Source: an uncultured Gemmatimonadaceae bacterium (GTDB lineage Bacteria; Gemmatimonadota; Gemmatimonadetes; Gemmatimonadales; Gemmatimonadaceae). From it: a DNA stretch of 64,000 nt. The DNA lies in assembly GCA_963761305.1 (NCBI GenBank), contig CAVXGK010000002.1, positions 3,264,001-3,328,000 of the forward strand, written 5' to 3'. Positions 1 through 41,811 of this stretch are shown one piece after another. Numbering within the stretch: the stretch's first letter is position 1; the number at the start of each line of letters is the position of its first letter. The position numbers and the translations under genes were made by a program. The notes under the pieces are model-generated. The model worked only from the letters and a program-made list of their open reading frames with translations, was not told where the DNA came from and ran no database searches.

Positions 1-2772
1 ATCGTCTCGTTGGCGCTCACATCGAGCGTGCTCACGCCCCCGCAGCTCACGCAGATCGCCGACCAGACGATCGCCGGCGACCTGCGCGCGATCGCCGGCG
101 TCGCTCAAGTGAACGTCGTCGGCGGCGACAGCGCACAGCTCAACGTCAACGTGCGCCCGAACGATCTCGCGGCGGTCGGCGTCGGCATCGATCAGGTCGT
201 GAACGCGCTCCGCGCGCAGAATCTCGCAGCGCCGGTCGGCAACGTGAACAGCGCGCTCGAGCAGCGGTCGATCCGACTCGAGGGACGCCTCGATCATCCG
301 GAGGATTTCAGCGCGCTCGTCATCTCGTCGCGCAACGGCGGGCTGGTGACGCTCGGTCAGGTGGCCGACGTCGAAGCCGGCGCCGCCGAGCCGCTGTCGG
401 GCGCCTTTTTCAACGGCAAACAGGCGATCGGTCTCGACATCGTGAAATCGCGCGAGGCCAGCACGACGGCCGTGGCCGATCGCGTGCGAGCTCGGGTCGA
501 CAGCCTGCAGCGGCAAATGCCGCCCGGCACGCAGATCGAGGTCGTGCGCGACGCCGGTGTGCGCGTCCGCAATTCGGTGCGCAACGTCCAGGAGGCGCTC
601 ATCGAAGGGGCGTTGCTCACGGTGCTTGTCGTGTTCCTGTTCCTGAATTCGTGGCGTTCGACGGTGATCACCGGTCTCGCTCTGCCCGTGTCGGTGCTCT
701 CGGCGTTCGTGCCGCTGTTGATGCTCGGGTTCACCCTCAACACGATGTCGCTGCTCGGCCTGTCGCTGGCGATCGGCATTCTCATCGACGACGCGATCGT
801 CGTGCGCGAGAACATCGTGCGGCACGTCGAGATGGGTGCCGACCACATGACGGCGGCGCACGAAGGCACCGACGAGATCGGACTCGCCGTGGCCGCGACG
901 ACGTTCTCGATCGTCGCGGTGTTCGTGCCGGTGGGCTTCATGCCCGGCGTCGCGGGTCAATGGTTCAAACCGTTCGCGCTCACGATCGCCGCGGCGGTGC
1001 TCGTCTCGCTCTTCGTGTCGTTCTCGCTCGACCCGATGCTCTCGGCGTACTGGGCGGATCCACAGCTCGAGGCGCACGATCGACGCAACCCGATCGCACG
1101 CGCGCTCGAGCGATTCAATCAATGGTTCGACCGTCAGGCTGACCGCTACAAGTCGGTGATCGCGTGGGCGCTCGATCATCGATGGACGATGGTGGCGCTG
1201 GCGGCCGCGTCGTTTGTGTTCGCGATCGTGTTGCAGATCACGATCGGCGGGTTCGCGTTCGTACCGGTGACCGATCAGAGTGAACTGAACATCGCCATCG
1301 AGACGCCGCCCGGCTCGAGCCTCGACTATACGTCGCTCAAGGCGGAAGAGATCGCGCGAATGATTCGCGCGCGGCCGGAAGTGAAATACACGTACACGAC
1401 CGTCGGCAGCACGACCGGATCGGCCGAGGCGGACAACGCGACGATTTACGTGAGGCTCGCTCCAAAGAACGAGCGCTCGCTGAGCCAGGACGAGCTCGGA
1501 CAGGTCATGCGCCAGGAAATGCGGCACGTCGGCGGCGCGACGGCGTTCACGTTCGCGTCCGGCTTCGGCGGTGCGCAAAAGCAGTTGCAACTGCAACTGC
1601 AGGGTCCCGACCAGGCCGTGCTCAACGACTACGCCGAGCGCATCGCCAAGATCGTGTCGAGCGTTCCGGGCGCGGTGGACGTCGGACTGTCCACCAAAGG
1701 ACAGAAGCCCGAATTCAACGTGCGTGTGAACCGTGGACTCGCCGGCACGCTTGGCGTGAGTGTGAGCCAGCTCGCCGCGTCGCTCCGATTCGCCTTCGCC
1801 GGCGTGGATGCCGGAACGTGGGTCGATCCCTCGGGCATCTCGCGCTACGTGCACGTGCGACTCGTGCCGTCGGCGCGCGAGAATGCGGCGGACCTGGGGC
1901 AGTTGCCCGTGCTGGTGACGCCGGCGCAGGCCGCGGCGGCCGGCGCGGGAGCGACGCCCGGCACAGGCGGTTCGGGAGTGCCGCAGTTCGTGCCGCTGCG
2001 GCAGCTCGCCGACATCACGCCGAGTACTGGGCCGTCGCAGATCGACCACTACCAGCGAGAGCGCGTGGTGACGATCGGCGCCAACGTCGAAGGCGCGTCG
2101 CTCGGCAACGTGTCGCGCACGGTGCTTCAGGGGGTGAACAAACTGCAACTGCCGTCGGGCTATCACATCTCGCTCGGCGGCGAGACGCAGAGTCAGAACG
2201 AGGTGTTCGGCAACATCTTCATCGCGCTGGGCATCGCGGTGATGCTGATGTATCTGATTCTCGTCGTGCAGTTCGGATCGTTCCTGGATCCGCTGGCGAT
2301 TCTCGTGTCGCTGCCGTTATCGCTGATCGGCGTCGTGCTGGCGTTGATCGTGACGCGCGACACGCTCAATCTGATGAGCCTGATTGGCGTCATTCTGTTG
2401 ATGGGCATCGTGGCGAAGAACGCCATCCTGCTGATCGACTTCGCGAAGTGGGCGCACACGGGACGCGGACTCGACCGTCGCGCGGCGTTGATCGAGGCCG
2501 GGCGCATTCGGTTGCGTCCGATCCTCATGACGACGCTGGCGCTGATCGCCGGCATGGTGCCGGTGGCGATGGGCCTGGGTGAGGGCGCGGACTTTCGAGC
2601 GCCGCTCGGCCGCGCGGTGATCGGCGGCGTGATCACCTCGACAGTGCTGACGCTGGTCGTGATCCCGACCGTGTACGAGATCCTCGACGAGTGGCGCGAG
2701 GGATTCCTGGCGCGCTTCCGGCGGAAACAGCCGGCGCCCGTGGGCCACGTCGTGCCCGAGCCTGGCGATTAG
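1..2772 (+). CDS. RND efflux transporter permease (AcrB/AcrD/AcrF family), 5'-truncated by the window edge
   Basis: GILIDDAIVVRENI (TM4), GIVAKNAILL (TM10) and RLRPILMTT motifs; frame is open from base 1; TAG at 2770-2772. Confidence 0.95.
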   Translation: MVSLALTSSVLTPPQLTQIADQTIAGDLRAIAGVAQVNVVGGDSAQLNVNVRPNDLAAVGVGIDQVVNALRAQNLAAPVGNVNSALEQRSIRLEGRLDHPEDFSALVISSRNGGLVTLGQVADVEAGAAEPLSGAFFNGKQAIGLDIVKSREASTTAVADRVRARVDSLQRQMPPGTQIEVVRDAGVRVRNSVRNVQEALIEGALLTVLVVFLFLNSWRSTVITGLALPVSVLSAFVPLLMLGFTLNTMSLLGLSLAIGILIDDAIVVRENIVRHVEMGADHMTAAHEGTDEIGLAVAATTFSIVAVFVPVGFMPGVAGQWFKPFALTIAAAVLVSLFVSFSLDPMLSAYWADPQLEAHDRRNPIARALERFNQWFDRQADRYKSVIAWALDHRWTMVALAAASFVFAIVLQITIGGFAFVPVTDQSELNIAIETPPGSSLDYTSLKAEEIARMIRARPEVKYTYTTVGSTTGSAEADNATIYVRLAPKNERSLSQDELGQVMRQEMRHVGGATAFTFASGFGGAQKQLQLQLQGPDQAVLNDYAERIAKIVSSVPGAVDVGLSTKGQKPEFNVRVNRGLAGTLGVSVSQLAASLRFAFAGVDAGTWVDPSGISRYVHVRLVPSARENAADLGQLPVLVTPAQAAAAGAGATPGTGGSGVPQFVPLRQLADITPSTGPSQIDHYQRERVVTIGANVEGASLGNVSRTVLQGVNKLQLPSGYHISLGGETQSQNEVFGNIFIALGIAVMLMYLILVVQFGSFLDPLAILVSLPLSLIGVVLALIVTRDTLNLMSLIGVILLMGIVAKNAILLIDFAKWAHTGRGLDRRAALIEAGRIRLRPILMTTLALIAGMVPVAMGLGEGADFRAPLGRAVIGGVITSTVLTLVVIPTVYEILDEWREGFLARFRRKQPAPVGHVVPEPGD

Positions 2773-2911
2773 TTAAGTCGAATAGCCGCGGGCCCTACGG
2801 ACGCGCACGCAACACGGCTCAGCCGGCTAGGACACGGATGCGTACGGATCTTGCGAACGCTGGAGGCGGCCTCGGAAATGACCGGGGCGTCTCAACCGTG
2901 CGGAGGAACTC

Positions 2912-3580
2912 ATGTCGATACGCCCTGCTCGAGGCATGGCAATCGTGAGCGCGTGCGCCCTTGGTGTGCTTTGGGCGGCCTGCTCGAAAAGCGTAAGCAA
3001 GACGGACACGCTGGCGACTACGATGGACACGACCAAATCGGCCGCTGCGACGCCGACGCCCGACACCACGAGCATGGCGGTACCGACGTTGACTGACGTC
3101 AACATCGTCGCGCTGCTCGATGAAGCGAACGCCGGCGACAGCACGATGGGCAAGCTGGCCGCGACGAAGGGGACGAGTTCCGCGGTGAAGGAATTCGGCC
3201 GCCAGATGGAGCGCGATCATCACATGCTGCGCGAGCAGGGACAGGCGTTGGCGAAGAAGGAGAATCTCGCGCCGCAGCCGCCGGCGAACGACACGCTGGT
3301 GACCGCGACGAGCAAGATGCACGACAACCTCGACGCGATGGCGAAGGGCAAGGACTGGGACAAGGCGTACATCGACAACGAAGTCGCTGCCCACCAGTCG
3401 GTGCTCGCTCTCCTGACGACGGCGGGTACGTCGGCGCAGGACACGTCGCTCAAGGCGCTGATCGTCAAAGTGCAGCCGCTCGTTCAGGCGCATCTCACCA
3501 AGGCGCAGGACATTCAGTCGAAGCTCGCCGCGACGGCGACGGACACTGGGACGAACGCGATGGGCAAGAAGAAGGGCTAA
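2912..3580 (+). CDS. DUF4142 domain-containing exported/lipoprotein (ferritin-like helical bundle)
   Basis: GGAGGA SD; signal with LWAAC lipobox; AVKEFGRQMERDH, WDKAYIDNEVAAH and VQAHL pattern typical of DUF4142. Confidence 0.85.
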   Translation: MSIRPARGMAIVSACALGVLWAACSKSVSKTDTLATTMDTTKSAAATPTPDTTSMAVPTLTDVNIVALLDEANAGDSTMGKLAATKGTSSAVKEFGRQMERDHHMLREQGQALAKKENLAPQPPANDTLVTATSKMHDNLDAMAKGKDWDKAYIDNEVAAHQSVLALLTTAGTSAQDTSLKALIVKVQPLVQAHLTKAQDIQSKLAATATDTGTNAMGKKKG

Positions 3581-3610
3581 GCGAAGCGAAGACTTACAGA
3601 TAGCTCTGAT

Positions 3611-3648
3611 CTCGCGGCGCGCCCCGTTCACTCGGGTCGCGCCGCGAG
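3611..3648 (+). terminator. GC-rich hairpin after the DUF4142 gene (possible terminator, no U-tract)
   Basis: CTCGCGGCGCG (3611-3621) pairs with CGCGCCGCGAG (3638-3648). Confidence 0.4.
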
Positions 3649-3720
3649 CCGCGTTCGATCCATCGCCCTTGGCCGTTCCGGTCCACCGGCCCACAAGACC
3701 ACCAGCAGGTTGTAAAGAAA

Positions 3721-3765
3721 GTAAGTAGGTACTTGCATCGTGGTTGCGAACCGTCTACGGTTCGC
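3721..3765. promoter_or_regulatory. Candidate TetR operator palindromes upstream of the efflux operon
   Basis: AAGTA-GG-TACTT (3723-3734) and perfect GCGAACCGT-CT-ACGGTTCGC (3746-3765), ending 4 nt before the TetR ATG. Confidence 0.55.
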
Positions 3766-3769
3766 TCCC

Positions 3770-4384
3770 ATGGACATCCGCGACCGAATCCTCGACGCAG
3801 CGAAGCGTGTGTACGCCCAGCACGGCTTCCGGGGCGCAACGACGCGCCTCATCGCGATTGAAGCAGACGTCAACGAAGTCACGCTGTTTCGAACATTCGG
3901 CTCCAAGGCCGCGCTGTTCGAGACGCTGATGAAGGCGCACAACGCGCAAACTCCGGTTCCTCCTCTCCCAGAGGAGCCGGTGGATCCCGTCGCGGAGCTG
4001 ACGGACTGGGTGCGCCGCGTGCTGGCCCACCTGCGCGAAAATCGCTCGCTCATCCGCACCTCGATCGGCGAGGCAGAGGATCGTCCCGGCGCCGCGACGA
4101 CGATGTGCGAGGGGCCGACCTGCGCCGGCCGCATCCTGTCCGACTACGTGCGGCGGCTGCAGACGCGTGGAATGGCGGACCCGGCTGTCGACGTCGAAAC
4201 CGTTCGCGCGATGCTCCTCAGCGCGATGTTCGGCGACGCGATCTGCCGAGAGGTGATGGCGGGTGTGTTCCCCGAGCCTGAATCAGAAGCGGCAGCGAAG
4301 TACGTAGGCATCATGGTGCGGGCGCTCGGCATCGGGCGCGGCGCGCGCAAATCGAACGTCGCGCGAGTAGTCGCCGGAGACTGA
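3770..4384 (+). CDS. TetR/AcrR family transcriptional regulator
   Basis: RDRILDAAKRVYAQHGFRGATTRLIAIEADVNEVTLFRTFGSK helix-turn-helix; ATG 3770 preferred over GTG 3740. Confidence 0.93.
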   Translation: MDIRDRILDAAKRVYAQHGFRGATTRLIAIEADVNEVTLFRTFGSKAALFETLMKAHNAQTPVPPLPEEPVDPVAELTDWVRRVLAHLRENRSLIRTSIGEAEDRPGAATTMCEGPTCAGRILSDYVRRLQTRGMADPAVDVETVRAMLLSAMFGDAICREVMAGVFPEPESEAAAKYVGIMVRALGIGRGARKSNVARVVAGD

Positions 4385-4416
4385 CGCGCGGGCATGACCT
4401 CTACCCACCGAGTCAC

Positions 4417-6087
4417 ATGAAGACCGTAGGCCACCATCGCATCGCGCGAGCGGTCGTCACGCTCGCCACGGCGCTTGCTTGCGCCGGTCCACTTGTCGCA
4501 CAACAAACTACCCCCGCCGCAAGCGCGGCCGTCGGAGCCTCCGTTCGGCTCTCACTCGACGACGCGCTGCGGATGGGGGAAGCGCAGAGTCAGAACGTGG
4601 AAATCGCCCGCTCGAGCGTGGTTCGCGCGAACGGCCAGCGGTACCAGGCGCGGAGCCAGCTCTTTCCGCAGCTGAACGCCACGGCCGCCTATAGTCGCAC
4701 GCTCCAATCGCAGTTCTCGAGCTTCAGCGGCACGGCGACGGCTGTTGACACGACGACGCCGAAGGTCCAGGCGGTGTGCGCGCCGAACATTCCCGCCGAT
4801 GCCACGCCCGACCAACGGCTCGCCGCGCTTTCACAGGCGACGACATGCCAGTCGTCGAGCTCCTCGGCATTGGGGTTCAATCTGAGTCAGACGAGTTTCG
4901 GCGCGAGGAATCAGTGGACGGGTGGTCTGAATTTCTCCCAGAACGTCTACACCGGTGGCCGCATTGCCGCGCAGACCGACGCCGCGAGCGCCCAGGTTCG
5001 CTCGGCCGACATCGAAGTGTCGGCGCAGCGCGCACAAGCGGCGCTCGACGTGGCCTCGGCGTACTATGACGCGGCGCTGGCTGACCAGCTCGTCGTCATC
5101 GCCGACTCGTCGGTCGCGCAAACCGCGATCGTGCTCCAGCAGACGCGCGTCGCTCGACAAGTCGGCAACGCCGCGGAGTACGATCTGCTGCGCGCGCAGG
5201 TGACGCACGACAACGAGCTGCCGGTCGCGATTCAGGCCCGCGCCAATCGCGAGGTCGCGTACCTGCGGCTCAAACAACTGCTCAACATGCCGCTCGAACG
5301 TGTTGTGCAGCTCACGACGCAGATCGAGACGCCCGACGGTCCGACGCTCCCGGCCATCGCGTCGAACGTCGCCGACACCTCTACGGCGTTGCGCGCGCCC
5401 GTGCGCGAGCTCGATGAAGCCGTCCGCGCATCCGAAGCGCAGGTGCGCGTGACGCGCAGCGAGCGCATTCCGTCGCTGTCGGTCGTCTCGGCGTATCAAC
5501 GTCTCTACTTCCCGACGCAATTCCTGCCCCAGGCGAACTTCGGCGTGAACAACTGGACGGTCGGTCTCCAGACGAGTTTCCCGATTCTCGACGGCGGGCG
5601 GATCAAGGGTGACCAGCTGATCGCGCAGGCAGGGGTGCAGCAAGCGAAGGCGCAGCGCGAGCAGACGCGCCAATTCGCGGCGCTCGACACGCGAGTCGCA
5701 CTGAATCAGCTCGCCGAAGCGCAGTCCTCGTGGGAAGCGAGCAAGGGCACGGCCGAACAGGCGCAGAAGGCCTACGCCATCGACGAAGTGAGACTCCGCG
5801 AAGGCATTTCGACGCAGACGGACCTCACGCAGTCGCGGCTCCTGCTCGAGCAGTCGCTCGCGAACCGCGCGCAGGCGGCGCGGAATCTGGCAGTGGCGCG
5901 CGTGCGTCTGGCGCTCATCCACGACTTGCCCATTCAGCAGACGGGCACCGGCGCGGTGTCGGCGCAGAACGCGACGGCGCAGCAGCAACAACAACAGCAG
6001 CAGCAATCCCAACAACAAACGAACTCAAGTCAGGCCGCGGCCTCCACCACGGGCGCGGGCGGACCACCAGGGGGCATTCAGCCATGA
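4417..6087 (+). CDS. TolC family outer membrane efflux protein
   Basis: Signal peptide; LSLDDAL, LFPQLNATAAY and FPILDGG outer-membrane-factor repeat motifs; ATGA overlap with the next gene. Confidence 0.92.
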   Translation: MKTVGHHRIARAVVTLATALACAGPLVAQQTTPAASAAVGASVRLSLDDALRMGEAQSQNVEIARSSVVRANGQRYQARSQLFPQLNATAAYSRTLQSQFSSFSGTATAVDTTTPKVQAVCAPNIPADATPDQRLAALSQATTCQSSSSSALGFNLSQTSFGARNQWTGGLNFSQNVYTGGRIAAQTDAASAQVRSADIEVSAQRAQAALDVASAYYDAALADQLVVIADSSVAQTAIVLQQTRVARQVGNAAEYDLLRAQVTHDNELPVAIQARANREVAYLRLKQLLNMPLERVVQLTTQIETPDGPTLPAIASNVADTSTALRAPVRELDEAVRASEAQVRVTRSERIPSLSVVSAYQRLYFPTQFLPQANFGVNNWTVGLQTSFPILDGGRIKGDQLIAQAGVQQAKAQREQTRQFAALDTRVALNQLAEAQSSWEASKGTAEQAQKAYAIDEVRLREGISTQTDLTQSRLLLEQSLANRAQAARNLAVARVRLALIHDLPIQQTGTGAVSAQNATAQQQQQQQQQSQQQTNSSQAAASTTGAGGPPGGIQP

Positions 6088-7223
6088 ACCAGCGTAAGAG
6101 CGACGCACGTCGCGGCACTACCACCACCGCGATCTTGACGTTCGCGCTCGTCGCCCTGGCCGGATGCAAGGGCGCCGACACGGGGAAGGCTGCGACGACC
6201 ACGCCGGCGATGCTCGTCGGTCCGGAGAACATCGCGGTGGTGAAGGGCGAGCAACTGCGCTCGGGCCCCGCGCTTTCGGGTACGTTGCAGCCGGAAGAGC
6301 AGGCGAACGTCCGCGTCGAAGTGGCCGGAACCGTGTTGCAGACGTACGCCGAAGCGGGCCAGCACGTGACGCGCGGGGAAACGCTGGCGCGCATCGACGA
6401 CGCGACATTGCAGGAAGCCGTGCTTTCCGCGCAGGCGGCGACGACGACGGCGCAAAGCACGGTCGATCTCGACAAGAAGCAGGTCGACCGCAACACCGCG
6501 CTCCTCAAAGCCGGCGCGATCGCCGACCGCGACCTCGAGATGTCGCAGAACCAGTTGAGCGCCGCGCAAGCACAACTCGCGAACGCGCAGTCGTTGCTCG
6601 CCAACGCGAAGAAGCAGCTCAGCAAGGCGACGATCGTCGCGCCGTTCTCGGGCATCGTCAGCGCGCGGCAAGTGAGCGCGGGCGACGTGTTGCAACCCGG
6701 TGGCGCGCTCTACGTGATCGTGAATCCGGCGACGATGCGCCTCGAGGCGTCGGTGCCGGCGGATCAGCTGTCGTCGATTCGAATCGGCGTGCCGGTGGAT
6801 TTCACGGTGAACGGCTATCCGAACCGGGCGTTCACCGGACACATCACCGCGATCAACCCCGTGGCCGACCCGGCGACGCGCCAGGTGCGCATCATCGTGT
6901 CGCTGCCGAATGAAAACGGCGCGCTCGTGGGCGGTCTGTTCGCCGACGGTCACGTGGCGAGTGAAGTACGCTCGGCGCCCGTCGTGCCGATCGCGGCCGT
7001 CGACGAGCGCGGGTTGAAGCCGTACGTCATGCAGATCAGGAACGGGCTCGTGACGAAGACGGAAGTGGAGCTCGGCATTCGCGACGCGGCGACCGAGACG
7101 GTGGAGATCAAGAGCGGCGTGCAGGCGGGCGACACGATTCTCCTCGGCGCGGCGCGCGGCATCTCGGAGAAGACGCCGGTCAAGGTCAGCGCGGTGGCGG
7201 CTGACACGGAGCGCAAGCAATGA
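6084..7223 (+). CDS. RND efflux periplasmic adaptor (membrane fusion protein), lipoprotein
   Basis: ATG 6084 overlaps the TolC stop; LAGC lipobox; lipoyl/hairpin motifs GQHVTRGETLARID and IVAPFSGIV. Confidence 0.93.
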   Translation: MNQRKSDARRGTTTTAILTFALVALAGCKGADTGKAATTTPAMLVGPENIAVVKGEQLRSGPALSGTLQPEEQANVRVEVAGTVLQTYAEAGQHVTRGETLARIDDATLQEAVLSAQAATTTAQSTVDLDKKQVDRNTALLKAGAIADRDLEMSQNQLSAAQAQLANAQSLLANAKKQLSKATIVAPFSGIVSARQVSAGDVLQPGGALYVIVNPATMRLEASVPADQLSSIRIGVPVDFTVNGYPNRAFTGHITAINPVADPATRQVRIIVSLPNENGALVGGLFADGHVASEVRSAPVVPIAAVDERGLKPYVMQIRNGLVTKTEVELGIRDAATETVEIKSGVQAGDTILLGAARGISEKTPVKVSAVAADTERKQ

Positions 7224-10200
7224 TCATCTCGGATTTCGCGATCAAGCGGCCGCTCATCACCGTGGTGACGATGGTCGCTATGGTGATCTTCGGACTGTTC
7301 GCGTTGCTCAAATTGAAGACCGACGAATTCCCGGACGTCGATCCGCCGTTTCTCACGGTCGGCATCGTGTACCCGGGCGCGTCACCAGACGTCGTCGAGA
7401 GCGAGGTGTTGAAGCCGGTCGAGGAACAGATCGGCTCGATCTCCGGCGTCAAGCGCATCATGGGCAAGGCGTACGACGGCTACTCGATGATCATGATCGA
7501 GTTCTTCTACGACAAGGATCTCAACGTCGCGTCGCAGGAAGTGCGCGATGCGATCTCCGGCGTCCGCGAGGATCTGCCGATCGAGATGAAGGAGCCGATC
7601 GTGCAGAAGTTCAACGACACGGACCGTCCGATCGTGTCGCTGGCGATCTCGTCGACAGTGCTGTCGCCGCCGGAGCTCACACGCTTGGCCGATCCGGGCA
7701 TCACGCGCGAGCTGCGCGCGCTGCCGGGCGTCGCTGACGTGCAGATCTTCGGCAAGGTGGAGCGCGAGCTCACGGTCGAAGTCGACCCGCACAAGCTGCA
7801 AGCGGCGAACATCAGCGTCGCCGAAGTCGTGCAGGCGCTCCAACTGCAGAACCTCGCGGCACCGGTCGGCCGAGTGAACGGCGATCTCGACGAGCGCGCG
7901 ATTCGCTTGCGCGGTCGTCTCGACAATCCGGCGGAGTTCGAGAACCTCATCGTCGCCGACCGGAATGGGCAGCTCGTGCGGCTCGGACAGGTCGCGACGA
8001 TCAAGGACGCGACGGAAGAGCCGCGCACGCTCGCGCTCTACAACAGCAAGGAAGCGATCGGCATCGACGTGAAGAAGGCGAAGGGTTACAGCACGACGGA
8101 CGTCGCCGATCGCATTCGCGCGCGACTGGACCAGATCGAACCGACGCTGCCGAAGGGCACGAAGTTCGACCTGGTGAAGGACTCCGGCGAACGCGTGGAC
8201 CACGCGGTGAGCAACGTCGAAGAGGCGTTGATCCTTGGCGCGGCGCTCACAGTGCTGGTCGTGTTCCTGTTCCTGAACTCGTGGCGATCGACGGTCATCA
8301 CCGGCGTGGCGCTGCCGATTTCGGTGCTGGCGAGCTTCATCGCCGTGTGGGCGCTCGGCTTCAAGCTGGAGACGATGTCCCTGCTAGGCCTATCGCTCGC
8401 GATCGGTATCTTGATCGACGACGCGATCGTCGTTCGAGAGAACATCGTGCGACACGTCGAGATGGGGAAAGACCATTTCACAGCGGCGCACGACGGCACC
8501 GACGAGATCGGCCTGGCCGTCGCCGCGACGACCTTCTCGATTCTCGCCGTGTTCGTGCCGATCGGCTTCATGCCGGGCATCGGCGGTCAGTGGTTCAAGC
8601 CGTTCGCGCTGACCATCGCATGCTCGGTGGCGGTGTCGCTGTTCGTGTCGTTCTCGCTCGACCCGATGCTGTCGGCGTACTGGGCGGATCCGCACAAGGC
8701 GCCGCACGAGCGCGCGTGGATCACGCGGCAGCTGGACAAGTTCAACCACTGGTTCAACGCGCGCGCCGAGGACTACAAGAAAGTCATCGCGTGGGCGCTC
8801 GACCATCGCACCGCGATGGTGTTGATGGCAGCGCTGACGTTCATCGCGTCATTTTTCCTCCCGTCGTACGGATTGACGGGTCTCGGCCTGGCCGTCGCGG
8901 CAATCGCCATCATCGTGTTCGGGATGACGAAAGCGGGGCTCAATCGTGCCACGCGGAGCGCGGTCATCGCGATTGGATCCATCGGCTACGTGTACGCGGC
9001 AGTCACTTCGTTCGGCATTGCTCCGCGGGCCTTGCAGCCGATCCGCACGGTCGGCACGGGTTTCTTCCCGGAAGACGACCGCGCCGAGTTCACGATGGCC
9101 CTCGAAACACCGCCGGGCTCCAACCTCGAGTACACGCGACTCAAGGCCGAGGAAGCGGCGCAGATCGCGCGCGCACACACGGATTTGGTGAAGTACACGT
9201 ACACGACGCTCGGCAACCAGGCGACGGGCGGCGTGGACGAAGGGCACATCTACGTGCGGCTCGTGCCGAAGGACAAGCGAAGCCTGTCGGCGGAGGAATT
9301 CGCCGAGGTGCTGCGGCACGAGACGAAGCGCATGTCCGGCGCGACGATCTCGATCTTCACGAACGATCTCAACGGCGGATTCAAGGCGATTCAGCTGCAG
9401 TTGCGCGGGCAGGACGTGGCCGCGCTGGCGGAAGCGGCCGACATGGTGAAGGCCGGCGTCGAGAAGATTCCCGGCGCGGTCGACATCGGCCTGTCTACGA
9501 AAGGACAGAAGCCGGAGCTCGAAATCGATCTGAATCGAGGTGTCGCCGGTTCGGTGGGTCTCACCGTGGGACAGGTCGCGCAGTCGCTGCGCCCGGCGTT
9601 CGCGGGTATCGACGCCGGCTACTGGATCGATCCGAGCGGCAAATCGCGCAAGGTCACCGTGCGACTGACGCCCGAATCGCGCCAGCGCGCGTCGGATCTC
9701 GAGCGCTTGCCGATGGTGGTGCAGGGACCGAACGGGCTTCCGGCGACGATGCCGCTCGGCCAGATCGCGACGATCAAACCGGGCGTTGGTCCGGCGATCA
9801 TCGACCACTTGAATCGTGAACCGGTCGTGACGGTCGAGCTCAACACGTCGGGACGCGCCGCCGGTGACGTGACGGCGGACATTCAGACGATGCTCGGCAA
9901 GATGCGCCTGCCACCTGGCGTGCGGTACACGATCGGCGGCGACGCCGAATCGCAGGCGGAGGTGTTCGGCCAGATTTTCTCGGCGCTGGGACTGGCTGTG
10001 TTGTTGATGTATCTGATTCTCGTGGTGCAGTTCGGATCGTTCATCGACCCGATCGCGATTCTCATGTCGCTGCCGCTGTCGTTGATTGGCGTGATGATAT
10101 CGCTTGCGATCACCAAGATGACGATCAACATCATGAGCTTGATCGGCGTGATCTTGCTCATGGGCATCGTGGCGAAGAACGCGATTCTGCTGATCGACTT

Positions 10201-10534
10201 CGCGAAGTGGGCGCGCGAGGATCGCGGCGTGCCGCTGCGCGAGGCGTTGATTCAGGCCGGCGCGATCCGGTTGCGTCCGATTCTCATGACGACGTTCGCG
10301 CTCATCGCCGGCATGATCCCGGTGGCGCTCGGCCGCGGCGAAGGCGCGCAGTTCCGCGCTCCGCTCGGTGTGGCGGTCATCGGCGGCGTGATCACGTCGA
10401 CTTTCCTCACGCTGCTCGTGATTCCGACCGGCTACGAGATTCTCGATGAATGGCGCTCGTGGTTCATGCGCAGCATCGGCTCAACGCCGAAACAGATGAC
10501 GGCAGAGCACGCGGTGCCGGCGGCGGGGGACTGA
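7220..10534 (+). CDS. RND efflux transporter permease (AcrB/AcrD/AcrF family)
   Basis: 1104 aa; ISDFAIKRP start; IDDAIVVRENI, AKNAILL and RLRPILMTT motifs; ATGA-coupled to the adaptor gene. Confidence 0.96.
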   Translation: MIISDFAIKRPLITVVTMVAMVIFGLFALLKLKTDEFPDVDPPFLTVGIVYPGASPDVVESEVLKPVEEQIGSISGVKRIMGKAYDGYSMIMIEFFYDKDLNVASQEVRDAISGVREDLPIEMKEPIVQKFNDTDRPIVSLAISSTVLSPPELTRLADPGITRELRALPGVADVQIFGKVERELTVEVDPHKLQAANISVAEVVQALQLQNLAAPVGRVNGDLDERAIRLRGRLDNPAEFENLIVADRNGQLVRLGQVATIKDATEEPRTLALYNSKEAIGIDVKKAKGYSTTDVADRIRARLDQIEPTLPKGTKFDLVKDSGERVDHAVSNVEEALILGAALTVLVVFLFLNSWRSTVITGVALPISVLASFIAVWALGFKLETMSLLGLSLAIGILIDDAIVVRENIVRHVEMGKDHFTAAHDGTDEIGLAVAATTFSILAVFVPIGFMPGIGGQWFKPFALTIACSVAVSLFVSFSLDPMLSAYWADPHKAPHERAWITRQLDKFNHWFNARAEDYKKVIAWALDHRTAMVLMAALTFIASFFLPSYGLTGLGLAVAAIAIIVFGMTKAGLNRATRSAVIAIGSIGYVYAAVTSFGIAPRALQPIRTVGTGFFPEDDRAEFTMALETPPGSNLEYTRLKAEEAAQIARAHTDLVKYTYTTLGNQATGGVDEGHIYVRLVPKDKRSLSAEEFAEVLRHETKRMSGATISIFTNDLNGGFKAIQLQLRGQDVAALAEAADMVKAGVEKIPGAVDIGLSTKGQKPELEIDLNRGVAGSVGLTVGQVAQSLRPAFAGIDAGYWIDPSGKSRKVTVRLTPESRQRASDLERLPMVVQGPNGLPATMPLGQIATIKPGVGPAIIDHLNREPVVTVELNTSGRAAGDVTADIQTMLGKMRLPPGVRYTIGGDAESQAEVFGQIFSALGLAVLLMYLILVVQFGSFIDPIAILMSLPLSLIGVMISLAITKMTINIMSLIGVILLMGIVAKNAILLIDFAKWAREDRGVPLREALIQAGAIRLRPILMTTFALIAGMIPVALGRGEGAQFRAPLGVAVIGGVITSTFLTLLVIPTGYEILDEWRSWFMRSIGSTPKQMTAEHAVPAAGD

Positions 10535-10758: not shown

Positions 10759-11829
10759 CTGCCGCATATCGGACGAAGCATCACGGCGACCGTTGTCATC
10801 GCCTCGACGGCCTGTGCGTTCTCGCGCGGCTCCACGGGATTCCATCCCGCGGACGACTTCGTTCTGTCCGGCACCGCGCTGTCCGATCTCACCGAGGGCA
10901 CGACGCTGCGGACGAGATCGGCCGCGCTCGACCGAATCACCAAGCGTGAGCCGCGGCTCGACAGCACGATGCGTCGACTCGGCACGGGCCGCGGCGTGGC
11001 GATCTACGTCTTCGACGGCGGTGTCAGCGATACGCACGCGGAGCTGGCGGGGCGCGTTCGAGTCGGATTCGACGCGTTCCCGAGCTCCCCTCGAGTCTGC
11101 AACGCGCACGGCACCGCCGTCGCCGGCGCCGCGGCCGGTGCGACGCTCGGCGTGGCCCCCGAAGCCGAGATCGTCGACGTCAAGATCATCAACTGCGATC
11201 ACATGCGCGGATCCGTGAGTGCCATCGCCGACGCGGCGCGGTGGACGGTGCAGGATCACCATCGCCATCCCGGGCAGGCCGCGATCGCGAACTGGTCGTT
11301 CGCCGTCGACACGACGCGCGGCGTTCCGGAGGTGGACAGCGCGCTCGCGATGCTGCGCGACGCGGGAATTCTCGTCGTCGTCGCGGCGGGCAACTTCGAC
11401 ATCGACGCCTGTCACGTCTCGCCGGCGAACGCGCCGCGCGCGTTCGTCGTTGGTGCGAGCGCGCTGATGCATTCGACCGACAAGCAATGGCAGGACGTGC
11501 GGGCCAAGAATACTGCGTGGGGTCCGTGCATCGATCTCTACGCGCCAGGGGACTCGGTGCTGTTGCCGGGTTTCGATCGCGAGGGGCCGACAACGTCCGT
11601 GTGGAGCGGCACGTCGATGGCGGCGGGCTACGTGAGCGGCGCGGCGAGCCTCATCTTCCAGCGCGATCCCGGCGCCACATCCGATGACGTCATGATGTTG
11701 CTGCTCGAGCAGGCCACGCCGTCGGTCGTCGACGAGCGCGCGGGTATCACGACGTCGGCGCGCTCACCGCTGCTCTACGTCGGCCCCGCGGTGCGCACCG
11801 TAGCCGCCGTTCCGCACGTACGGTACTAG
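10759..11829 (+). CDS. S8 family (proteinase K/aqualysin-like) serine peptidase; start uncertain (CTG 10759 proposed, first ATG 10969)
   Basis: Catalytic motifs VFDGG, HGTAVAG, AAGN and GTSMA; ALDRITKR (equivalent to GLDRIDQR) lies upstream of the first ATG in the same open frame. Confidence 0.85.
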   Translation: MPHIGRSITATVVIASTACAFSRGSTGFHPADDFVLSGTALSDLTEGTTLRTRSAALDRITKREPRLDSTMRRLGTGRGVAIYVFDGGVSDTHAELAGRVRVGFDAFPSSPRVCNAHGTAVAGAAAGATLGVAPEAEIVDVKIINCDHMRGSVSAIADAARWTVQDHHRHPGQAAIANWSFAVDTTRGVPEVDSALAMLRDAGILVVVAAGNFDIDACHVSPANAPRAFVVGASALMHSTDKQWQDVRAKNTAWGPCIDLYAPGDSVLLPGFDREGPTTSVWSGTSMAAGYVSGAASLIFQRDPGATSDDVMMLLLEQATPSVVDERAGITTSARSPLLYVGPAVRTVAAVPHVRY

Positions 11830-12303
11830 TCCGCCGGCCGACAGCACGCCGGCCATGAAGGGTGCGGGCGGCGCCGCGGCGATCGTCTCGTTCCTGTCGA
11901 GCAGGGTGATGATCGCGGTCCGATCGTCCATCGACACACGGAGCCTGTCTCCTTCGCGAATTGCGCTCGTGTCGCACTCGATCGGCAGCAGCGCGTTGTT
12001 GACGGCGTTGCGGTAGAACGTTCGCGAAAAGCTCTTGGCGAGGACCGCCTTGATGCCCGCGGCGAGAATCACCGTGGCGGCGATCTCCATGGCCGATCCG
12101 CAGCCGAAGTTCGCGCCGGCGACGATCAGGTCTTCCGGTTGCACCGACGCCGCGAACGCCGGATCGACCGCCTCGAGGAGATATCGCCTCAACACGCTCT
12201 CATCCAGCGTGTCGCGCTTGCGCGTGGAGGCGATGATGTAGTCGGTGTTGATATCATCGCCGAGCACGCGCGCGCGGCCGTCGAGTGCGATGTGCATCGT
12301 CAT
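11764..12303 (-). CDS. LeuD-like small subunit of an aconitase-family (3-isopropylmalate dehydratase-type) hydro-lyase
   Basis: GDDINTDYII, GANFGCGS, SFSRTFYRNAVN and GGLVPY motifs; ATG 12303 overlaps the large-subunit stop. Confidence 0.92.
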   Translation of the reverse strand: MTMHIALDGRARVLGDDINTDYIIASTRKRDTLDESVLRRYLLEAVDPAFAASVQPEDLIVAGANFGCGSAMEIAATVILAAGIKAVLAKSFSRTFYRNAVNNALLPIECDTSAIREGDRLRVSMDDRTAIITLLDRNETIAAAPPAPFMAGVLSAGGLVPYVRNGGYGAHRGADVEQR

Positions 12304-13643
12304 CGGATGTCGCGCGGGTCGGTGATGCGGCCCGTGGCGGCCGACGCGGCGCACGTCGCCGGCGACGCGAGGTAGATCGACGCCGTGGCGTTGCCCATGC
12401 GCGCCTTGAAATTGCGGTTCGCCGTGGAGAGCACGTTCATGCCGTCGCCCGGAATCGCGCCGCTCGTTCCGCAGCACGCGCCGCAGCCAGGCGTCGTGAC
12501 GATCGCGCCCATCGTCGTGAGCTTGGCGAGCGTGCCGTCGTCGGTGAGCGTGAGCAGCACCTCGCGCGACGCCGGCGTCACGACCAACTGCACGCCTGGC
12601 GCCACGCGTCCGCCGGCACGCTCGAGCACGTGCACAGCTTCGTGAAAATCGGAGACCCGGCCGCCGGTGCAGGTGCCGAGGAAGACCATGTGCACCGGGA
12701 CGCCGGCCGCCGCGCTGACGTCGACCACGTCAGTCGGATTGTGCGGAATCGCGACGCGCGGCGAGAGTGTCGAGAGGTCGAGGGTGAGGGTGAGTGAATA
12801 GGTCGCGGTGGAGTCGGGGTGGACGGGCGTGGACGGGTGGACAGCGAGACGTCTGACGTCAGACCCCTCGGCTTCCGAGGCGTCGCCTCTCGTTGTCCAC
12901 CCGTCCAGCCCGTCCACCCTCTCGGCGAGGTACGCCTCCGTCGCCGCATCGACGCTCCACATCGCCGCCTTCGCGCCCGCTTCGACCGAGAGATTCGACA
13001 ACACCATGCGCTCGTCGAGCGTGAACGCGCCGACGCCCGGACCGTGGAATTCGAGCGCCTGATAGTTCGCGCCTTCAGAGCCGAGTGCGTGGATCATCGC
13101 GAGACCCACGTCCTTCGCGGCGAGCGCGGGCGGACGCGTTCCGGTGAGCTCGATCCTGATCGTCTCCGGCACGCGCAACCACGTCCGGCCGGTGATGAGC
13201 GCAGCCGCGATGTCGGACGAGCCGAGTCCGGTCGCGAACGCATTGAGCGCGCCGCAGGTCACGGTGTGACTGTCGGCGCCGATGACGAGATCGCCGGGCA
13301 CGATGCGCCCGCGTTCTGGTGCGACCTGGTGGCTGATTCCTTCGCCGACCTCGAACACCGTCGCGCCATGGCGTCGCGCGAATGCGCGTACCTGGTCGTG
13401 AAACGCAGCGGTCTTGGGCGTGGACGGCGGCGAGTAGTGGTCGAGCGAGAACACCACGCGATTCGCGTCGAACAACCGCTCGCCGCCCATCTGCTCGAAG
13501 TAGCCGATGGTCATCGGCGTGGAGGCGTCGGTGCCTATGACGAGGTCCACGTCGCATACGACGACGTCGCCCGCGCGTGCATCGACGCCCGACTTTGCCG
13601 ACAGAATCTTCTCGCTCAGTGTCTTGCCGCGAGCCGCCGTCAT
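12300..13643 (-). CDS. LeuC-like large subunit of an aconitase-family [4Fe-4S] hydro-lyase
   Basis: KTLSEKIL, LDH, GADSHT, GTCTGGR, CGACCG, STANRNF and YLASP motifs; ATG 13643 overlaps the transporter stop. Confidence 0.93.
   Translation of the reverse strand: MTAARGKTLSEKILSAKSGVDARAGDVVVCDVDLVIGTDASTPMTIGYFEQMGGERLFDANRVVFSLDHYSPPSTPKTAAFHDQVRAFARRHGATVFEVGEGISHQVAPERGRIVPGDLVIGADSHTVTCGALNAFATGLGSSDIAAALITGRTWLRVPETIRIELTGTRPPALAAKDVGLAMIHALGSEGANYQALEFHGPGVGAFTLDERMVLSNLSVEAGAKAAMWSVDAATEAYLAERVDGLDGWTTRGDASEAEGSDVRRLAVHPSTPVHPDSTATYSLTLTLDLSTLSPRVAIPHNPTDVVDVSAAAGVPVHMVFLGTCTGGRVSDFHEAVHVLERAGGRVAPGVQLVVTPASREVLLTLTDDGTLAKLTTMGAIVTTPGCGACCGTSGAIPGDGMNVLSTANRNFKARMGNATASIYLASPATCAASAATGRITDPRDIR
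12817..12919. repeat. REP-like palindromic element (same family as 10541-10667) embedded in frame in the LeuC-like CDS
   Basis: GGGTGGACGGGCGTGGACGGGTGGACAGCGAGA pairs with TCTCGTTGTCCACCCGTCCAGCCCGTCCACCC; internal hairpins GTCTGACGTCAGAC and CCTCGG-CTT-CCGAGG. Confidence 0.8.
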
Positions 13644-14947
13644 TCGCTCGACGCCGCGGCGGCTGTCGGATCGATTGTCACCGGGCTGGCGAGCATCGTG
13701 TCGGCGGCGGCGCCGCGCTCCGTGCGCGCGATCCACGTTGCTCCAACGAGGTTGCTCAACGTGTTCACCGCCGACCGGCACATGTCGAGCGGGCGGTCGA
13801 TCGCGGCCACGAGCGCCATGCCCGCGGCGGCGCGCGAGCCGAGGCCGATCGCGTTCAGCACGATCAGCGTCGTGACGAGCGAACTGCCCGGCACGCCCGC
13901 GCCGGCAAACGCGGCGATCGTCGCCATGGCGACGACCGTGAGCATCATGCTCGGCGTGACGGGAAAACCGTACAGATGCGCGATGAAGACGGCCGTCACC
14001 GCTTTATAGGCAGCCGACCCGTTCTTGTTGAGCGAAGCGCCCGCCGGCAGGACGAAGCTCGTGATGTCGCTGGGTACGCCTAGGCGGTCGTTGGCCGCGG
14101 CCATGCTCACGGGAAGCGTCGCGTTGGACGACGCCGTAGAGAACGCGAGGAAGAGCGCGTCGGACGTGCGCTCGAGGAAACCGGCAATCGGTTGGCCGGC
14201 ACCGAAGCGCAGCATCGGGATCAGCGTGACGACGACGTGCACGACCAGCGCCACGACGACGACGGCCGCGAACGCGAGAAGCTGGTCGAGCAGCCCGAGA
14301 CCCGCCTTCGCGACCGCGGCCGCGATGAGGGCGAAGACGCCGAATGGCGCGAGCTGCATGAGCCAACCGACGACGACCATCGCCATCTCGTTCACGCCCC
14401 GGAAGAAACGCACGACCGGTTCGCGCCGGTGGGTTTCGATGACCGTCGCGGCGGCGCCGAAGAAGCACACCGCGACGATGAGCGGCAAGAGATCGGCGCC
14501 GCCCTGCGCTGCGGCCGCGAACGGATTCTGCGGCACGAGGTTGATGAGCGTCTGCGCGACGCCTGGCACGGACGCGGTACCTGCGCCGCCCGGCTGATTC
14601 GCCGCGCCAACGGCATTCGGAAAGGTGAAACCGGCGCCGACGTTCGATGTCGTCGCGACGAGCAGGCCGATGAGCGCGGCGACGAGCGTCGTTCCGAAAA
14701 AGAAAAGTAGTGTCTTGGCGCCCACTCTGCCGAGCGATCGGATGTCGCCCAGCGATGCGACGCCGACGAACACGCTGGCGATGACGAGCGGCACGACGAC
14801 CATCGTGATCAGTCGAATGAACACGGTGCCGACCGGCTCGAGGTTCGCGACCACGCCTGCGAACAACCCAAAACCGGGCGCGCGCGCGACCAGCCCGACG
14901 ACCACGCCGGACGCGAATCCTATGAGGATCTTGCGCTCGAGCTTCAC
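13640..14947 (-). CDS. Dicarboxylate/amino acid:cation symporter (DAACS, GltP/DctA family)
   Basis: FIRLITMVVVPLV, FSTASSNATLP (HP1), GAGVPG (HP2) and IDRPLDMCRSAVN (TM8) motifs; GTG start overlaps the upstream stop. Confidence 0.93.
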   Translation of the reverse strand: MKLERKILIGFASGVVVGLVARAPGFGLFAGVVANLEPVGTVFIRLITMVVVPLVIASVFVGVASLGDIRSLGRVGAKTLLFFFGTTLVAALIGLLVATTSNVGAGFTFPNAVGAANQPGGAGTASVPGVAQTLINLVPQNPFAAAAQGGADLLPLIVAVCFFGAAATVIETHRREPVVRFFRGVNEMAMVVVGWLMQLAPFGVFALIAAAVAKAGLGLLDQLLAFAAVVVVALVVHVVVTLIPMLRFGAGQPIAGFLERTSDALFLAFSTASSNATLPVSMAAANDRLGVPSDITSFVLPAGASLNKNGSAAYKAVTAVFIAHLYGFPVTPSMMLTVVAMATIAAFAGAGVPGSSLVTTLIVLNAIGLGSRAAAGMALVAAIDRPLDMCRSAVNTLSNLVGATWIARTERGAAADTMLASPVTIDPTAAAASSE

Positions 14948-16104
14948 GACGCGCCCGCTCTCGCCGCGTTGGCGTCGTGCGGCGAATAGTGGCCGGAGAG
15001 CACCTCGTCGAGCGCGAGCTTCAAGGCGTCGAGCGTGCGCTCGGCGTCAGCCATGCGAATGTCGCCCATGTGGCCGATGCGAAAGCCGACCGACTCGTAC
15101 GGCCCGAGGCCGCCCGCCGTGAGAATGCCGCGCGACTTGATTCGTTCTCGGATCGCGCGCGGCTCGACTCCTGCCGGCAGCGCGATCGCCGTCATCGTTG
15201 CCGAGAGATGCGGGAGCTGGGGACATTGCAGCGTCAGTCCGAGCGCGCCGACGCCTTCGCGGACTCGTCGAGCGAGCGACGCGTGGCGCGCGTAGACGTT
15301 GTCCAGGGCTTCCTCGTGGATCATGCGCAATGCTTCGGCGACTTGCAGCACGATCGCCACGGGCGGCGTGCCGGGCGTCTCCGGGCGCGCTTTCTCGACC
15401 GCGTGCTTCACGGCGGTGAAATCCCAGTAGTTTCTCGGCAGCGTCGACGTCGCGCAGGCGGACCACGCACGCTGGCTCAGCACCGCCCACGAAAGCCCCG
15501 GCGCCGACATTAAACACTTCTGCGTCGCCGTGACCGCGACGTCGGCGCCCCACTCGTCGAACGCGAACGGCATTCCGCCGAGGGACGACACGCCGTCCAC
15601 CAGCACGAGCTTGTCGCGCGAGCGGGCAATGCGGGCGACCGCCTCGACGTCGTTCCTCACACCGGTTGACGAATCACCGAACGCGAGCGCGATCGCGCGC
15701 GTTCGTGGATGCTCGTCGAGCACGGACTCGAGCTCGCGCGCATCGACGCCCAGCTCCCATTGTGTCGCCAAGCGATGCGCGACGACGCCGTACGATTCGG
15801 CCAAGCGCGCCCACATCTCGCCGAACTTGCCGTTACAGCACACGGCGATCTCGTCGCCGGGCGAGAAGAGGTTGCAGATCGTCGCTTCCAACGCACCGCG
15901 GCCCGTCGTGTGGATCGGGATCGGTGTCTGCGTCGTGCCAAATACGGGACGCAGAAGCTCCAGCGCGACGGCCAGCTCGCGAGAGAACTCCGGCGTGCGA
16001 TGGTGGATCATGGGCCGCGCGCCCGCGCGCAGCACGCGCTCGGGCACGCGCGTCGGACCCGGCGTCATGAGAAGCAACGGCTCTCCGGCAAACGGCTCCG
16101 TCAC
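14944..16104 (-). CDS. PLP-dependent class V aminotransferase (alanine-glyoxylate/serine-pyruvate family)
   Basis: LMTPGPT, HHRTPEF, VDGVSSLGG, ATQKCL (PLP lysine) and FRIGHMG motifs. Confidence 0.93.
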   Translation of the reverse strand: MTEPFAGEPLLLMTPGPTRVPERVLRAGARPMIHHRTPEFSRELAVALELLRPVFGTTQTPIPIHTTGRGALEATICNLFSPGDEIAVCCNGKFGEMWARLAESYGVVAHRLATQWELGVDARELESVLDEHPRTRAIALAFGDSSTGVRNDVEAVARIARSRDKLVLVDGVSSLGGMPFAFDEWGADVAVTATQKCLMSAPGLSWAVLSQRAWSACATSTLPRNYWDFTAVKHAVEKARPETPGTPPVAIVLQVAEALRMIHEEALDNVYARHASLARRVREGVGALGLTLQCPQLPHLSATMTAIALPAGVEPRAIRERIKSRGILTAGGLGPYESVGFRIGHMGDIRMADAERTLDALKLALDEVLSGHYSPHDANAARAGAS

Positions 16105-16787
16105 TCGATCACGCCCTTCTTCCTGAGCGACTCGTCGATCTCCGCGCGATACAACACACCCTTTCCGATCTCGGCGATTCGCGCCGTCTCGCGGGCCATC
16201 AACTCGCCGACGGCCGCGAGCACGGATTCAGCATCGTCGCGCGGGACGACGGCCACGCCGTCCTTGTCACCCACGACGAGATCGCCCGGCATGACGACCG
16301 TATCACCGCAGGCGATCGGCAGATTGATCTCGCCGGGTCCGTCCTTGTCGCACGCGCCGGGACTCACCGAACGGCTGAACGCGGGCATGCCGAGCCGGCG
16401 GATGCCGTCGACGTCGCGAATCGCGCCGTCCACGATGATGCCGCCGAGCTTCTTTGCCGACGCTGTGTGACACATCAATTCGCCGAACACGGCGCTCGTC
16501 GTGTTGCCGCAGGTGGCGACGACGATCACGTCGCCCGGGTCGGCAACCTGAAGCGCCTTGTGCACCATGAGATTGTCGCCGGGCCGACAGCGCACGGTCA
16601 CCGCGCGACCACCGAGCGACAACCCGGTGCGCGAGAGAATTCCTGGATCCATGAAATTGAACCGCCCCATCGCGTCGGCGAGGTTCGCGGCGGCCGTGCC
16701 GCGAAAACGTTCGACGAGCGAATCGGGGAGTCGCGGTGGAGCGGTCGCGATTCGAAAGCCTGGTTTTCCGCTGGCTGAGACGGGCAT
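16101..16787 (-). CDS. RraA family protein / HMG-CHA aldolase-like class II pyruvate aldolase
   Basis: ANLADAM, GRAVTV, PGDNL, AVFGE, DGAIRD and PGDLVVGDKDGVAVVP motifs; ATG 16787 preferred. Confidence 0.9.
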   Translation of the reverse strand: MPVSASGKPGFRIATAPPRLPDSLVERFRGTAAANLADAMGRFNFMDPGILSRTGLSLGGRAVTVRCRPGDNLMVHKALQVADPGDVIVVATCGNTTSAVFGELMCHTASAKKLGGIIVDGAIRDVDGIRRLGMPAFSRSVSPGACDKDGPGEINLPIACGDTVVMPGDLVVGDKDGVAVVPRDDAESVLAAVGELMARETARIAEIGKGVLYRAEIDESLRKKGVIE

Positions 16788-39604: not shown

Positions 39605-39644
39605 CGATGCCCTCCAGCCCGCGAACCCAGAGAACCGCGCGCAA

Positions 39645-40496: not shown

Positions 40497-40657
40497 CTGA
40501 ACGAATTCGATTCCTCCTGCCACTCGTGGGCCTCATCGCTTGGTACACCGGGATTCTCGTTCGACAGCCTGTCGCCAGCAAGACCGACCTCGATCCGGCA
40601 TCCCGGGTCTCCCCACCGCGTGCCATATTCGTGACCAGCCGAGCACGAGGATCAACG

Positions 40658-41809: not shown

Positions 41810-41811
41810 CG

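Follow-up and report, generated by a model that had tools for sequence, protein, structure and literature searches.

We analyzed a 64,000-nt stretch of a contig from an uncultured Gemmatimonadaceae bacterium (assembly GCA_963761305.1, contig CAVXGK010000002.1, positions 3,264,001 to 3,328,000; hereafter the window), in which a minus-strand operon encodes an RraA-fold aldolase, a class V transaminase, a DAACS/SDF symporter and the two subunits of a LeuC/LeuD-type hydro-lyase (LeuCD; Table 1). The original prediction for this locus had described five minus-strand genes joined by four 4-nt stop/start overlaps, and re-reading the window sequence bore this out: every frame was open and ended in one terminal stop, and the four consecutive overlaps read GTGA (16101-16104), GTGA (14944-14947), ATGA (13640-13643) and ATGA (12300-12303). 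The GC fraction of the operon (0.66-0.69) was near the window value of 0.66, and the closest named relatives were uncultured Gemmatimonadaceae, with LeuC identities of 83-85%. None of the five proteins reached an equivalog cut-off, LeuC and LeuD passing broad subfamily models only. Promoter and terminator scans gave results at chance level, and no shared operator or RNA motif was found in the 51 upstream regions compared. As detailed below, the operon is real and conserved. It forms an orphan catabolic module that stands alone and whose basis is a wrongly annotated subfamily of the aconitase family.

Table 1. Coordinates of the operon genes and of other features in the window.
Feature	Coordinates	Strand	Size and family
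RraA-fold class II pyruvate aldolase	16787-16101	-	228 aa; PF03737 Aldolase/RraA
Class V pyridoxal phosphate (PLP) aminotransferase	16104-14944	-	386 aa; PF00266
DAACS/SDF symporter	14947-13640	-	435 aa; PF00375
LeuC/HacA-type [4Fe-4S] hydro-lyase large subunit	13643-12300	-	447 aa; PF00330 aconitase
LeuD/HacB-type small subunit	12303-11764	-	179 aa; PF00694 aconitase C-terminal
Subtilase gene	10969-11829	+	
Two AcrB-family RND genes with TetR, outer-membrane factor and membrane-fusion genes	1-10534		
Itaconate-degradation-like cluster	38277-44366		CitE/RipC-like lyase, Ich-like dehydratase, acyl-CoA dehydrogenase, family III CoA-transferase, MmgE/PrpD protein

A neighborhood search for conservation of the five-gene set had been proposed with the original prediction, and our genome scan returned 79 loci, of which 69 belonged to the same LeuCD branch and 10 were distant; nine of the latter showed identities of at most 46% and carried the GSSRE motif wherever LeuD could be aligned. 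All five genes were present in 41 of the 69 same-branch loci, 34 in the order seen in the window and seven with the carrier last, at LeuC identities down to 52%. The transaminase gene was missing from eight loci and the carrier from two, in three the flanks of the LeuCD pair contained no partner gene, and in most other incomplete loci contig ends or insertions interrupted the set. One of the 69 loci (L046, in genome G303) is flagged as unpublished; its genome is among the eight that lack the transaminase, and the locus also contributes one row to alignment A3. We conclude that the five-gene operon is conserved, and more so than by chance. No sixth gene recurred around the module loci beyond close kin, and no conserved regulator was found in the Gemmatimonadota loci. 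Of 301 genomes from the family to which the window belongs, 26 carried the module, as did 10 of 13 others of its genus, while its prevalence based on the aldolase was 7/301 across the phylum; we found it in 2/201 and 7/401 genomes of two Acidobacteriota classes and in 1/301 genomes of the phylum of the Myxococcota carrier, and cultured Cupriavidus species carry the same LeuD subfamily. One genome held two RraA-transaminase-DAACS operon starts roughly 3 kb apart and 9-12 kb from its LeuCD locus (L171 and L175, G308:C1:330174-336897), a repeat that may be a duplication or an assembly artefact.

The LeuCD pair retains the catalytic outline of its superfamily, namely three Fe-S cysteines in LeuC (C325 in 68/68 loci, C387 and C390 each in 69/69), the catalytic serine S70 of LeuD (68/68) and the DH, DSH and N-R-x4-R residues of the large subunit; the three cysteines and the serine are given as aconitase features in PMC8184944. 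The GSSRE motif, highly conserved across all isopropylmalate isomerase small subunits and related aconitases according to PMC7308503, was replaced by a GSAME-type sequence in all 67 aligned LeuD loci of the clade, with SSRE in 9/9 outgroup loci and SAME in 239 of the top 240 database hits from two queries. A basic recognition loop, S-x-R-K-[RK], was present in 67/67 LeuD loci; it differs from the Y-L-R-T of 2PKP and did not match a homoaconitase loop, and no acidic residue able to hold an amino group has been gained in it. Relative to LeuC/HacA, the large subunit is changed at T38 and G327. The arginine lost from GSSRE is, we assume, the equivalent of aconitase Arg644, which would bind carboxylate and activate the serine base, roles for which we found no confirmation in the literature; on that view, its loss would suit a substrate activated by a ketone better than one of the malate type. 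The predicted LeuD fold was ordinary (pLDDT 86; TM-scores of 0.80-0.84 to archaeal LeuD/HacB 3VBA and 2PKP). The nearest solved structures of the pair were 4NQY, 4KP1, 4KP2, 2PKP and 3VBA, structure searches found none from the SAME subfamily, and an ESM Atlas search matched Aconitase_C clusters only.

A LeuC phylogeny that would set the pair against characterized enzymes had also been suggested, and this was answered in part. In a quick maximum-likelihood tree (143 rows, midpoint root) that includes no characterized enzymes, all 78 SAME rows and six undetermined rows fell on one side of a branch with a support of 100 and all 49 SSRE rows fell on the other, so that, as far as these sequences indicate, the pair forms its own branch within the LeuC/HacA-type enzymes. 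An RraA gene lay within 5 kb of 60 of the 90 GSAME loci, many of them on short contigs, compared with none of the 55 true GSSRE loci; for this count L060 was assigned by its re-read motif, and 14 loci whose motif could not be read were excluded. The combination of SAME with S-x-R-K-[RK] provides a simple signature that separates this subfamily.

Could these simply be leucine (or lysine) biosynthesis genes that lie beside unrelated ones? Consistent with this, their LeuCD-type relatives carry the database label 3-isopropylmalate dehydratase, the broad subfamily models are passed, and the operon holds the sole LeuC/LeuD pair of the 5.2-Mb genome, the other match being a full-length aconitase. Against it, neither an HMGL-like synthase domain (leuA type, homocitrate synthase) nor IlvD was found in this 93% complete genome; the positive controls were detected in all 14 genomes examined. 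The two Iso_dh proteins of the window's genome scored best as isocitrate dehydrogenases. The pair lacks GSSRE, stands on its separate branch and did not reach the leuC, LEU2, HacA, HacB or leuD equivalog cut-offs, and, as first reported for the window, we saw no leuA or leuB among the genes called there, including 41 further genes that were scanned. Moreover, three of five other carriers checked (G309, G311 and G314) encode a separate canonical GSSRE LeuCD, although a LeuA regulatory domain was found in only one of the five and full leucine synthesis in them is not established. The LeuCD pair of the module is not a leucine or lysine enzyme, and the biosynthetic explanation is largely refuted and barely credible. 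The original prediction had counted a sole LeuCD copy as part of a refuting outcome; the copy is indeed sole, yet this does not refute a catabolic role, because the leuA-type and ilvD genes are missing as well and a canonical LeuCD exists alongside the module pair in other carriers. G311, G312 and G313 also encode an additional LeuCD-type pair with GSSRE that is of a different kind (L194-L196), with an amidohydrolase-like neighbor in two cases.

The RraA protein scored 147 bits with PF03737, in keeping with an RraA-like fold, and its best PDB match was 3NOJ (E 4e-33). Based on the 3NOJ alignment, with positions counted by hand, residues Asn71, Arg123, Asp124, Lys147 and Glu199 of the Pseudomonas putida aldolase for HMG (4-hydroxy-4-methyl-2-oxoglutarate) and CHA (4-carboxy-4-hydroxy-2-oxoadipate) correspond to N72, R124, D125, K148 and E200, each of which was invariant in 52/52 aligned RraA loci; the equivalent of His75 is likewise retained. 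The position of Asp102, which presumably has a functional role in the HMG/CHA aldolase, was Glu in 47/52 loci and Gly in Cupriavidus. According to PMC5065237, Arg123, Asn71 and Lys147 are needed for HMG cleavage by the P. putida enzyme, their mutants being crippled, Asp124 and Glu199 are metal ligands, and CHA is a known substrate of the fold. The best model was NCBIfam PRK06201 (218 bits, cut-off 231), and the curated ligK/HMG-CHA models were missed (TIGR02798, 134 vs. 304.5; PRK09262, 152 vs. 179). No aromatic 4,5-ring-cleavage genes were present among the recurring or scanned neighbors of the module, a negative that applies to the neighbors, since the positive control of a genome-wide LigA search was silent. 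Related RraA proteins (40-44%) also occurred in uncharacterized clusters of hydroxyacid, aldehyde and alcohol dehydrogenases (L177-L180) in Rhizobium, Paracoccus, a Comamonadaceae strain and Mesobacillus.

The transaminase belongs to the serine/alanine/aspartate-glyoxylate group, with BhcA as its best model (252 bits vs. a cut-off of 650), and retains the PLP lysine (K196). Residue R69 was present in 44/44 loci and absent from the second class V transaminase lineage (4/4). In the eight genomes whose loci lack the gene, no orthologue was found elsewhere (best match 30-37%), and the class V transaminase is an accessory member of the module. When we aligned the carrier against the aspartate transporter 9BGZ, the Asp and Arg of transmembrane segment 8 that mark acidic amino-acid carriers (D388 and R391) were present in 57/57 DAACS loci; we take them to contact the amino group and the side-chain carboxylate, respectively. 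In segment 7, where the solved aspartate carrier has the cation/substrate motif N-M-D-G-T..Y-Q, the window's carrier reads N-K-N-G-S..Y-K, and N-K-N-G-[AS] was found in most of 56 loci; two lysines have been added, K308 in 47/56 and K315 in 56/56.

Across Gemmatimonadota, Acidobacteriota, Myxococcota and Cupriavidus, LeuCD and RraA recurred as a core around which carrier and transaminase were exchanged. The carriers comprised DAACS, GltS, GltI-type ABC and TctC proteins, and the transaminases two class V lineages and an aspartate-transaminase type. In all six regions taken from the taxonomic class of G306, a GltS-type carrier (283-330 bits, cut-off 311) accompanied LeuC, LeuD and RraA, together with the second class V lineage (35-39% identity) in five of them, and GltS-type carriers also adjoined the core in L095, L110 and L113. 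The aspartate-transaminase-type enzyme (613 bits vs. a cut-off of 617) was found in Cupriavidus and in two metagenome loci, L091 and L099, and in L099 it was combined with a GltI-like binding protein/ABC system (354 bits vs. a cut-off of 375). The Cupriavidus campinensis locus, the one named-organism locus with long flanks that we saw in Proteobacteria, encodes LysR, TctC, LeuC, LeuD, the aspartate-transaminase-type enzyme and RraA; in this record a frameshift seems to affect the start of LeuD, and next to the core lie a second, paralogous LysR and TctC together with an oxoprolinase/hydantoinase pair, as would suit a glutamate that forms a lactam. This exchange of glutamate carriers and transaminases around one core points to a glutamate-like substrate.

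Individual loci carried further genes. In L037 (10371-15142) LeuD and the carrier are separated by a gene resembling serine/threonine dehydratases, the only PLP dehydratase within a module locus, and in two metagenome loci (L112:5295-9054 and L123:12956-17737) a PhnS/AfuA-family ABC transporter follows the core, beside a serine dehydratase or a threonine aldolase. Malate synthase was present in one of five carriers checked. On plasmid 2 of Variovorax sp. RA8 (L199:11879-29605), an oxoprolinase pair, LysR, transaminase and TctC are 65-79% identical to the Cupriavidus locus, followed further along by an amidase, TcuAB, a class II aldolase, a 2-hydroxyacid dehydrogenase and MmgE/PrpD; this cluster is possibly another route for a related compound.

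Judged from gene content and conserved residues, the module probably encodes a route to pyruvate for a modified glutamate that proceeds through import, transamination, hydration and retro-aldol cleavage. The carrier would import a C-substituted L-glutamate, which would be transaminated to its 2-oxo acid; the atypical LeuCD Fe-S enzyme would then add water at C4 of a 2-oxo-3-enoate to give a 4-hydroxy-2-oxoglutarate-type acid, and the RraA aldolase would cleave this acid to release pyruvate. No dehydrogenase is conserved in the module, and the proposed route needs none. The original prediction had outlined the same sequence of steps for a glutamate-like compound, and the conserved gene set and the carrier and transaminase swaps support that outline; the class V transaminase proved accessory. 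Of the two substrates it named, the best fit is 4-methyleneglutamate, whose route would call for no more than a ketone-activated hydration and would give pyruvate as both products, and we put it forward as a tentative candidate; 4-hydroxy-4-methylglutamate should need no hydro-lyase and so leaves the conserved LeuCD core unexplained. We found no description of this gene set, or of bacterial 4-methyleneglutamate catabolism, in the titles and abstract openings of the open-access literature, supplements aside. It is a serious possibility, if still short of probable, that the GSAME LeuCD represents a new aconitase-superfamily subfamily that hydrates or isomerizes ketone-activated 2-oxo-3-enoates rather than malate-type acids, and that it makes up, with the RraA aldolase, the core of an undescribed redox-neutral pathway for substituted glutamates (e.g., 4-methyleneglutamate from plants) in at least four phyla, in which carriers and transaminases are exchangeable.

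Several observations weigh against this proposal. The eight genomes with no transaminase orthologue oblige us to assume a general transaminase there, and class I transaminases adjoin 20 of 46 ordinary GSSRE loci, so adjacency of a transaminase is not in itself specific. The occurrence of the RraA subfamily in unrelated dehydrogenase clusters means that the aldolase does not fix the substrate, and in L020 and L036 LeuCD has no partner nearby, the RraA gene being on another contig. The oxoprolinase/hydantoinase pair stands beside the module in one locus, a search for its family gave no match in G000 and matches in two of five carriers tested, and LeuCD and RraA were absent from the 29 kb read of the Variovorax plasmid that shares the Cupriavidus oxoprolinase. 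TcuA and TcuB exceeded their cut-offs in L037, directly after the carrier and on the same strand (TcuAB occurred in 1/160 loci), and the added basic residues (LeuD loop, K308, K315 and R69) make a third acid group possible. Finally, for the natural occurrence of 4-methyleneglutamate in plants we found no confirmation in the literature.

Within the same type of route, the substrate might instead be a 3-hydroxy amino acid (3-hydroxyglutamate or 3-hydroxy-4-methylglutamate), which we consider rather unlikely. After transamination LeuCD would shift the hydroxyl from C3 to C4 by dehydration and rehydration, an isomerization that is the usual LeuCD reaction according to PMC8184944, the aldolase would release pyruvate together with glyoxylate (or with a second pyruvate), and glyoxylate would be recycled by the class V enzyme, with glycine as the product. 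Both class V lineages match the aspartate-glyoxylate transaminase model BhcA best, but at scores of 244-296, far under its cut-off, and L037, L112 and L123 contain or adjoin genes for serine/threonine dehydratases or a threonine aldolase. However, a single dehydratase would convert 3-hydroxyglutamate directly to 2-oxoglutarate, and a strong base would be required to abstract the proton at C4, yet the motif surrounding what we take to be the serine base is altered. That LeuCD acts as a direct dehydratase/deaminase on a 3-hydroxy amino acid (e.g., 3,4-dihydroxyglutamate), forming 4-hydroxy-2-oxoglutarate with no prior transamination, seems quite improbable. It would explain why the transaminase, left only to dispose of the glyoxylate from the aldolase, can be lost, and aconitase X, another member of the family, dehydrates a 3-hydroxy amino acid (PMC8184944), but the aspartate-transaminase-type enzyme of Cupriavidus, L091 and L099 points to removal of the amino group of the substrate, and the LeuD loop has gained no acidic residue to hold it.

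A tricarboxylic amino acid, such as the amino analogue of 4-oxalomesaconate or 4-carboxy-2-oxoadipate, is an improbable substrate. The basic residues listed above (three in the LeuD loop, two carrier lysines and R69 of the transaminase), the TctC-family binding proteins of Cupriavidus, the TcuA and TcuB of L037, also seen near the Variovorax locus that shares Cupriavidus genes, and the activity of the aldolase fold on CHA (PMC5065237) would all suit it. On the other hand, a small substituent is suggested by the GltS- and GltI-like carriers, whose scores reach or approach the cut-offs of the glutamate families, TcuAB was found in that one locus of 160, and ring-cleavage genes do not recur beside the module. 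We regard it as highly improbable that the module runs in the synthetic direction, making and exporting an unusual amino acid by aldol condensation, dehydration and transamination. Aldolase, hydro-lyase and transaminase steps are reversible and the Gemmatimonadota loci have no conserved regulator, but the carriers belong to uptake families and include periplasmic binding proteins, the Cupriavidus locus comes with LysR regulators and a family of ATP-dependent lactam hydrolases, and no ligase or assembly-line gene recurs.

Beyond the operon, the subtilase gene is convergent with it and overlaps the 3′ end of LeuD by 66 nt, a layout likewise present in L010-L013. The adjoining RND/TetR gene group is linked to the operon in close kin only. 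Every protein of the itaconate-like cluster scored below its equivalog cut-off; a functional link between the operon and this cluster, 21 kb off, was rejected, as the two do not co-occur outside the genus (an Ich-like gene was found in 8 of the 26 module carriers among the same 301 genomes, all of the window's genus, and in 0/15 carriers outside it). Peanut makes 4-methyleneglutamate, and oxoprolinase hits (49%) in peanut Bradyrhizobium were considered as a link to the module and dropped, their neighborhood holding neither LeuCD nor RraA.

Under its present label, the mislabelled 3-isopropylmalate dehydratase gives the impression that a portion of leucine synthesis exists in genomes that lack the pathway. 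If the proposed mechanism is true, it would be a new reaction for the aconitase superfamily, would assign a physiological function to one orphan group among the RraA-type aldolases, and would name a soil carbon and nitrogen source for the mostly uncultured Gemmatimonadota and Acidobacteriota. Cultured Cupriavidus strains make the question directly testable.

Four known systems resemble parts of the module. The lower protocatechuate/gallate 4,5-cleavage pathway (LigJ/GalB and LigK/GalC) shares the predicted order of hydration followed by retro-aldol cleavage to pyruvate, and its LigK/GalC aldolase (3NOJ) has the fold and key residues of the module RraA; the module differs in scoring below the ligK cut-offs, in having no ring-cleavage neighbors, in its entry from an amino acid, and in its predicted hydration by an aconitase-family Fe-S enzyme in place of LigJ/GalB, which we take to belong to other families. 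The beta-hydroxyaspartate cycle (BhcABCD) is likewise a small module for an unusual acidic amino acid with a class V transaminase to which the BhcA model is closest, but the module has neither a PLP aldolase nor an imine reductase, its transaminase falls well short of the BhcA cut-off, and no BhcA orthologue with BhcB, C and D was found, these partners not recurring at module loci. DmdAB of nicotinate fermentation and maleate hydratase, as we understand them, also pair a LeuCD-type hydratase with a subsequent pyruvate-releasing C-C lyase; by the same general descriptions, their substrates are diacids of the maleate type, and the partner of DmdAB is an enzyme of the isocitrate-lyase family. Archaeal-type LeuCD and HacAB resemble the pair described here in being built of two subunits and in having three Fe-S cysteines and a catalytic serine; the pair is set apart from them by GSAME, the S-x-R-K-[RK] loop, the T38 and G327 changes, its separate branch and its lack of a synthase partner.

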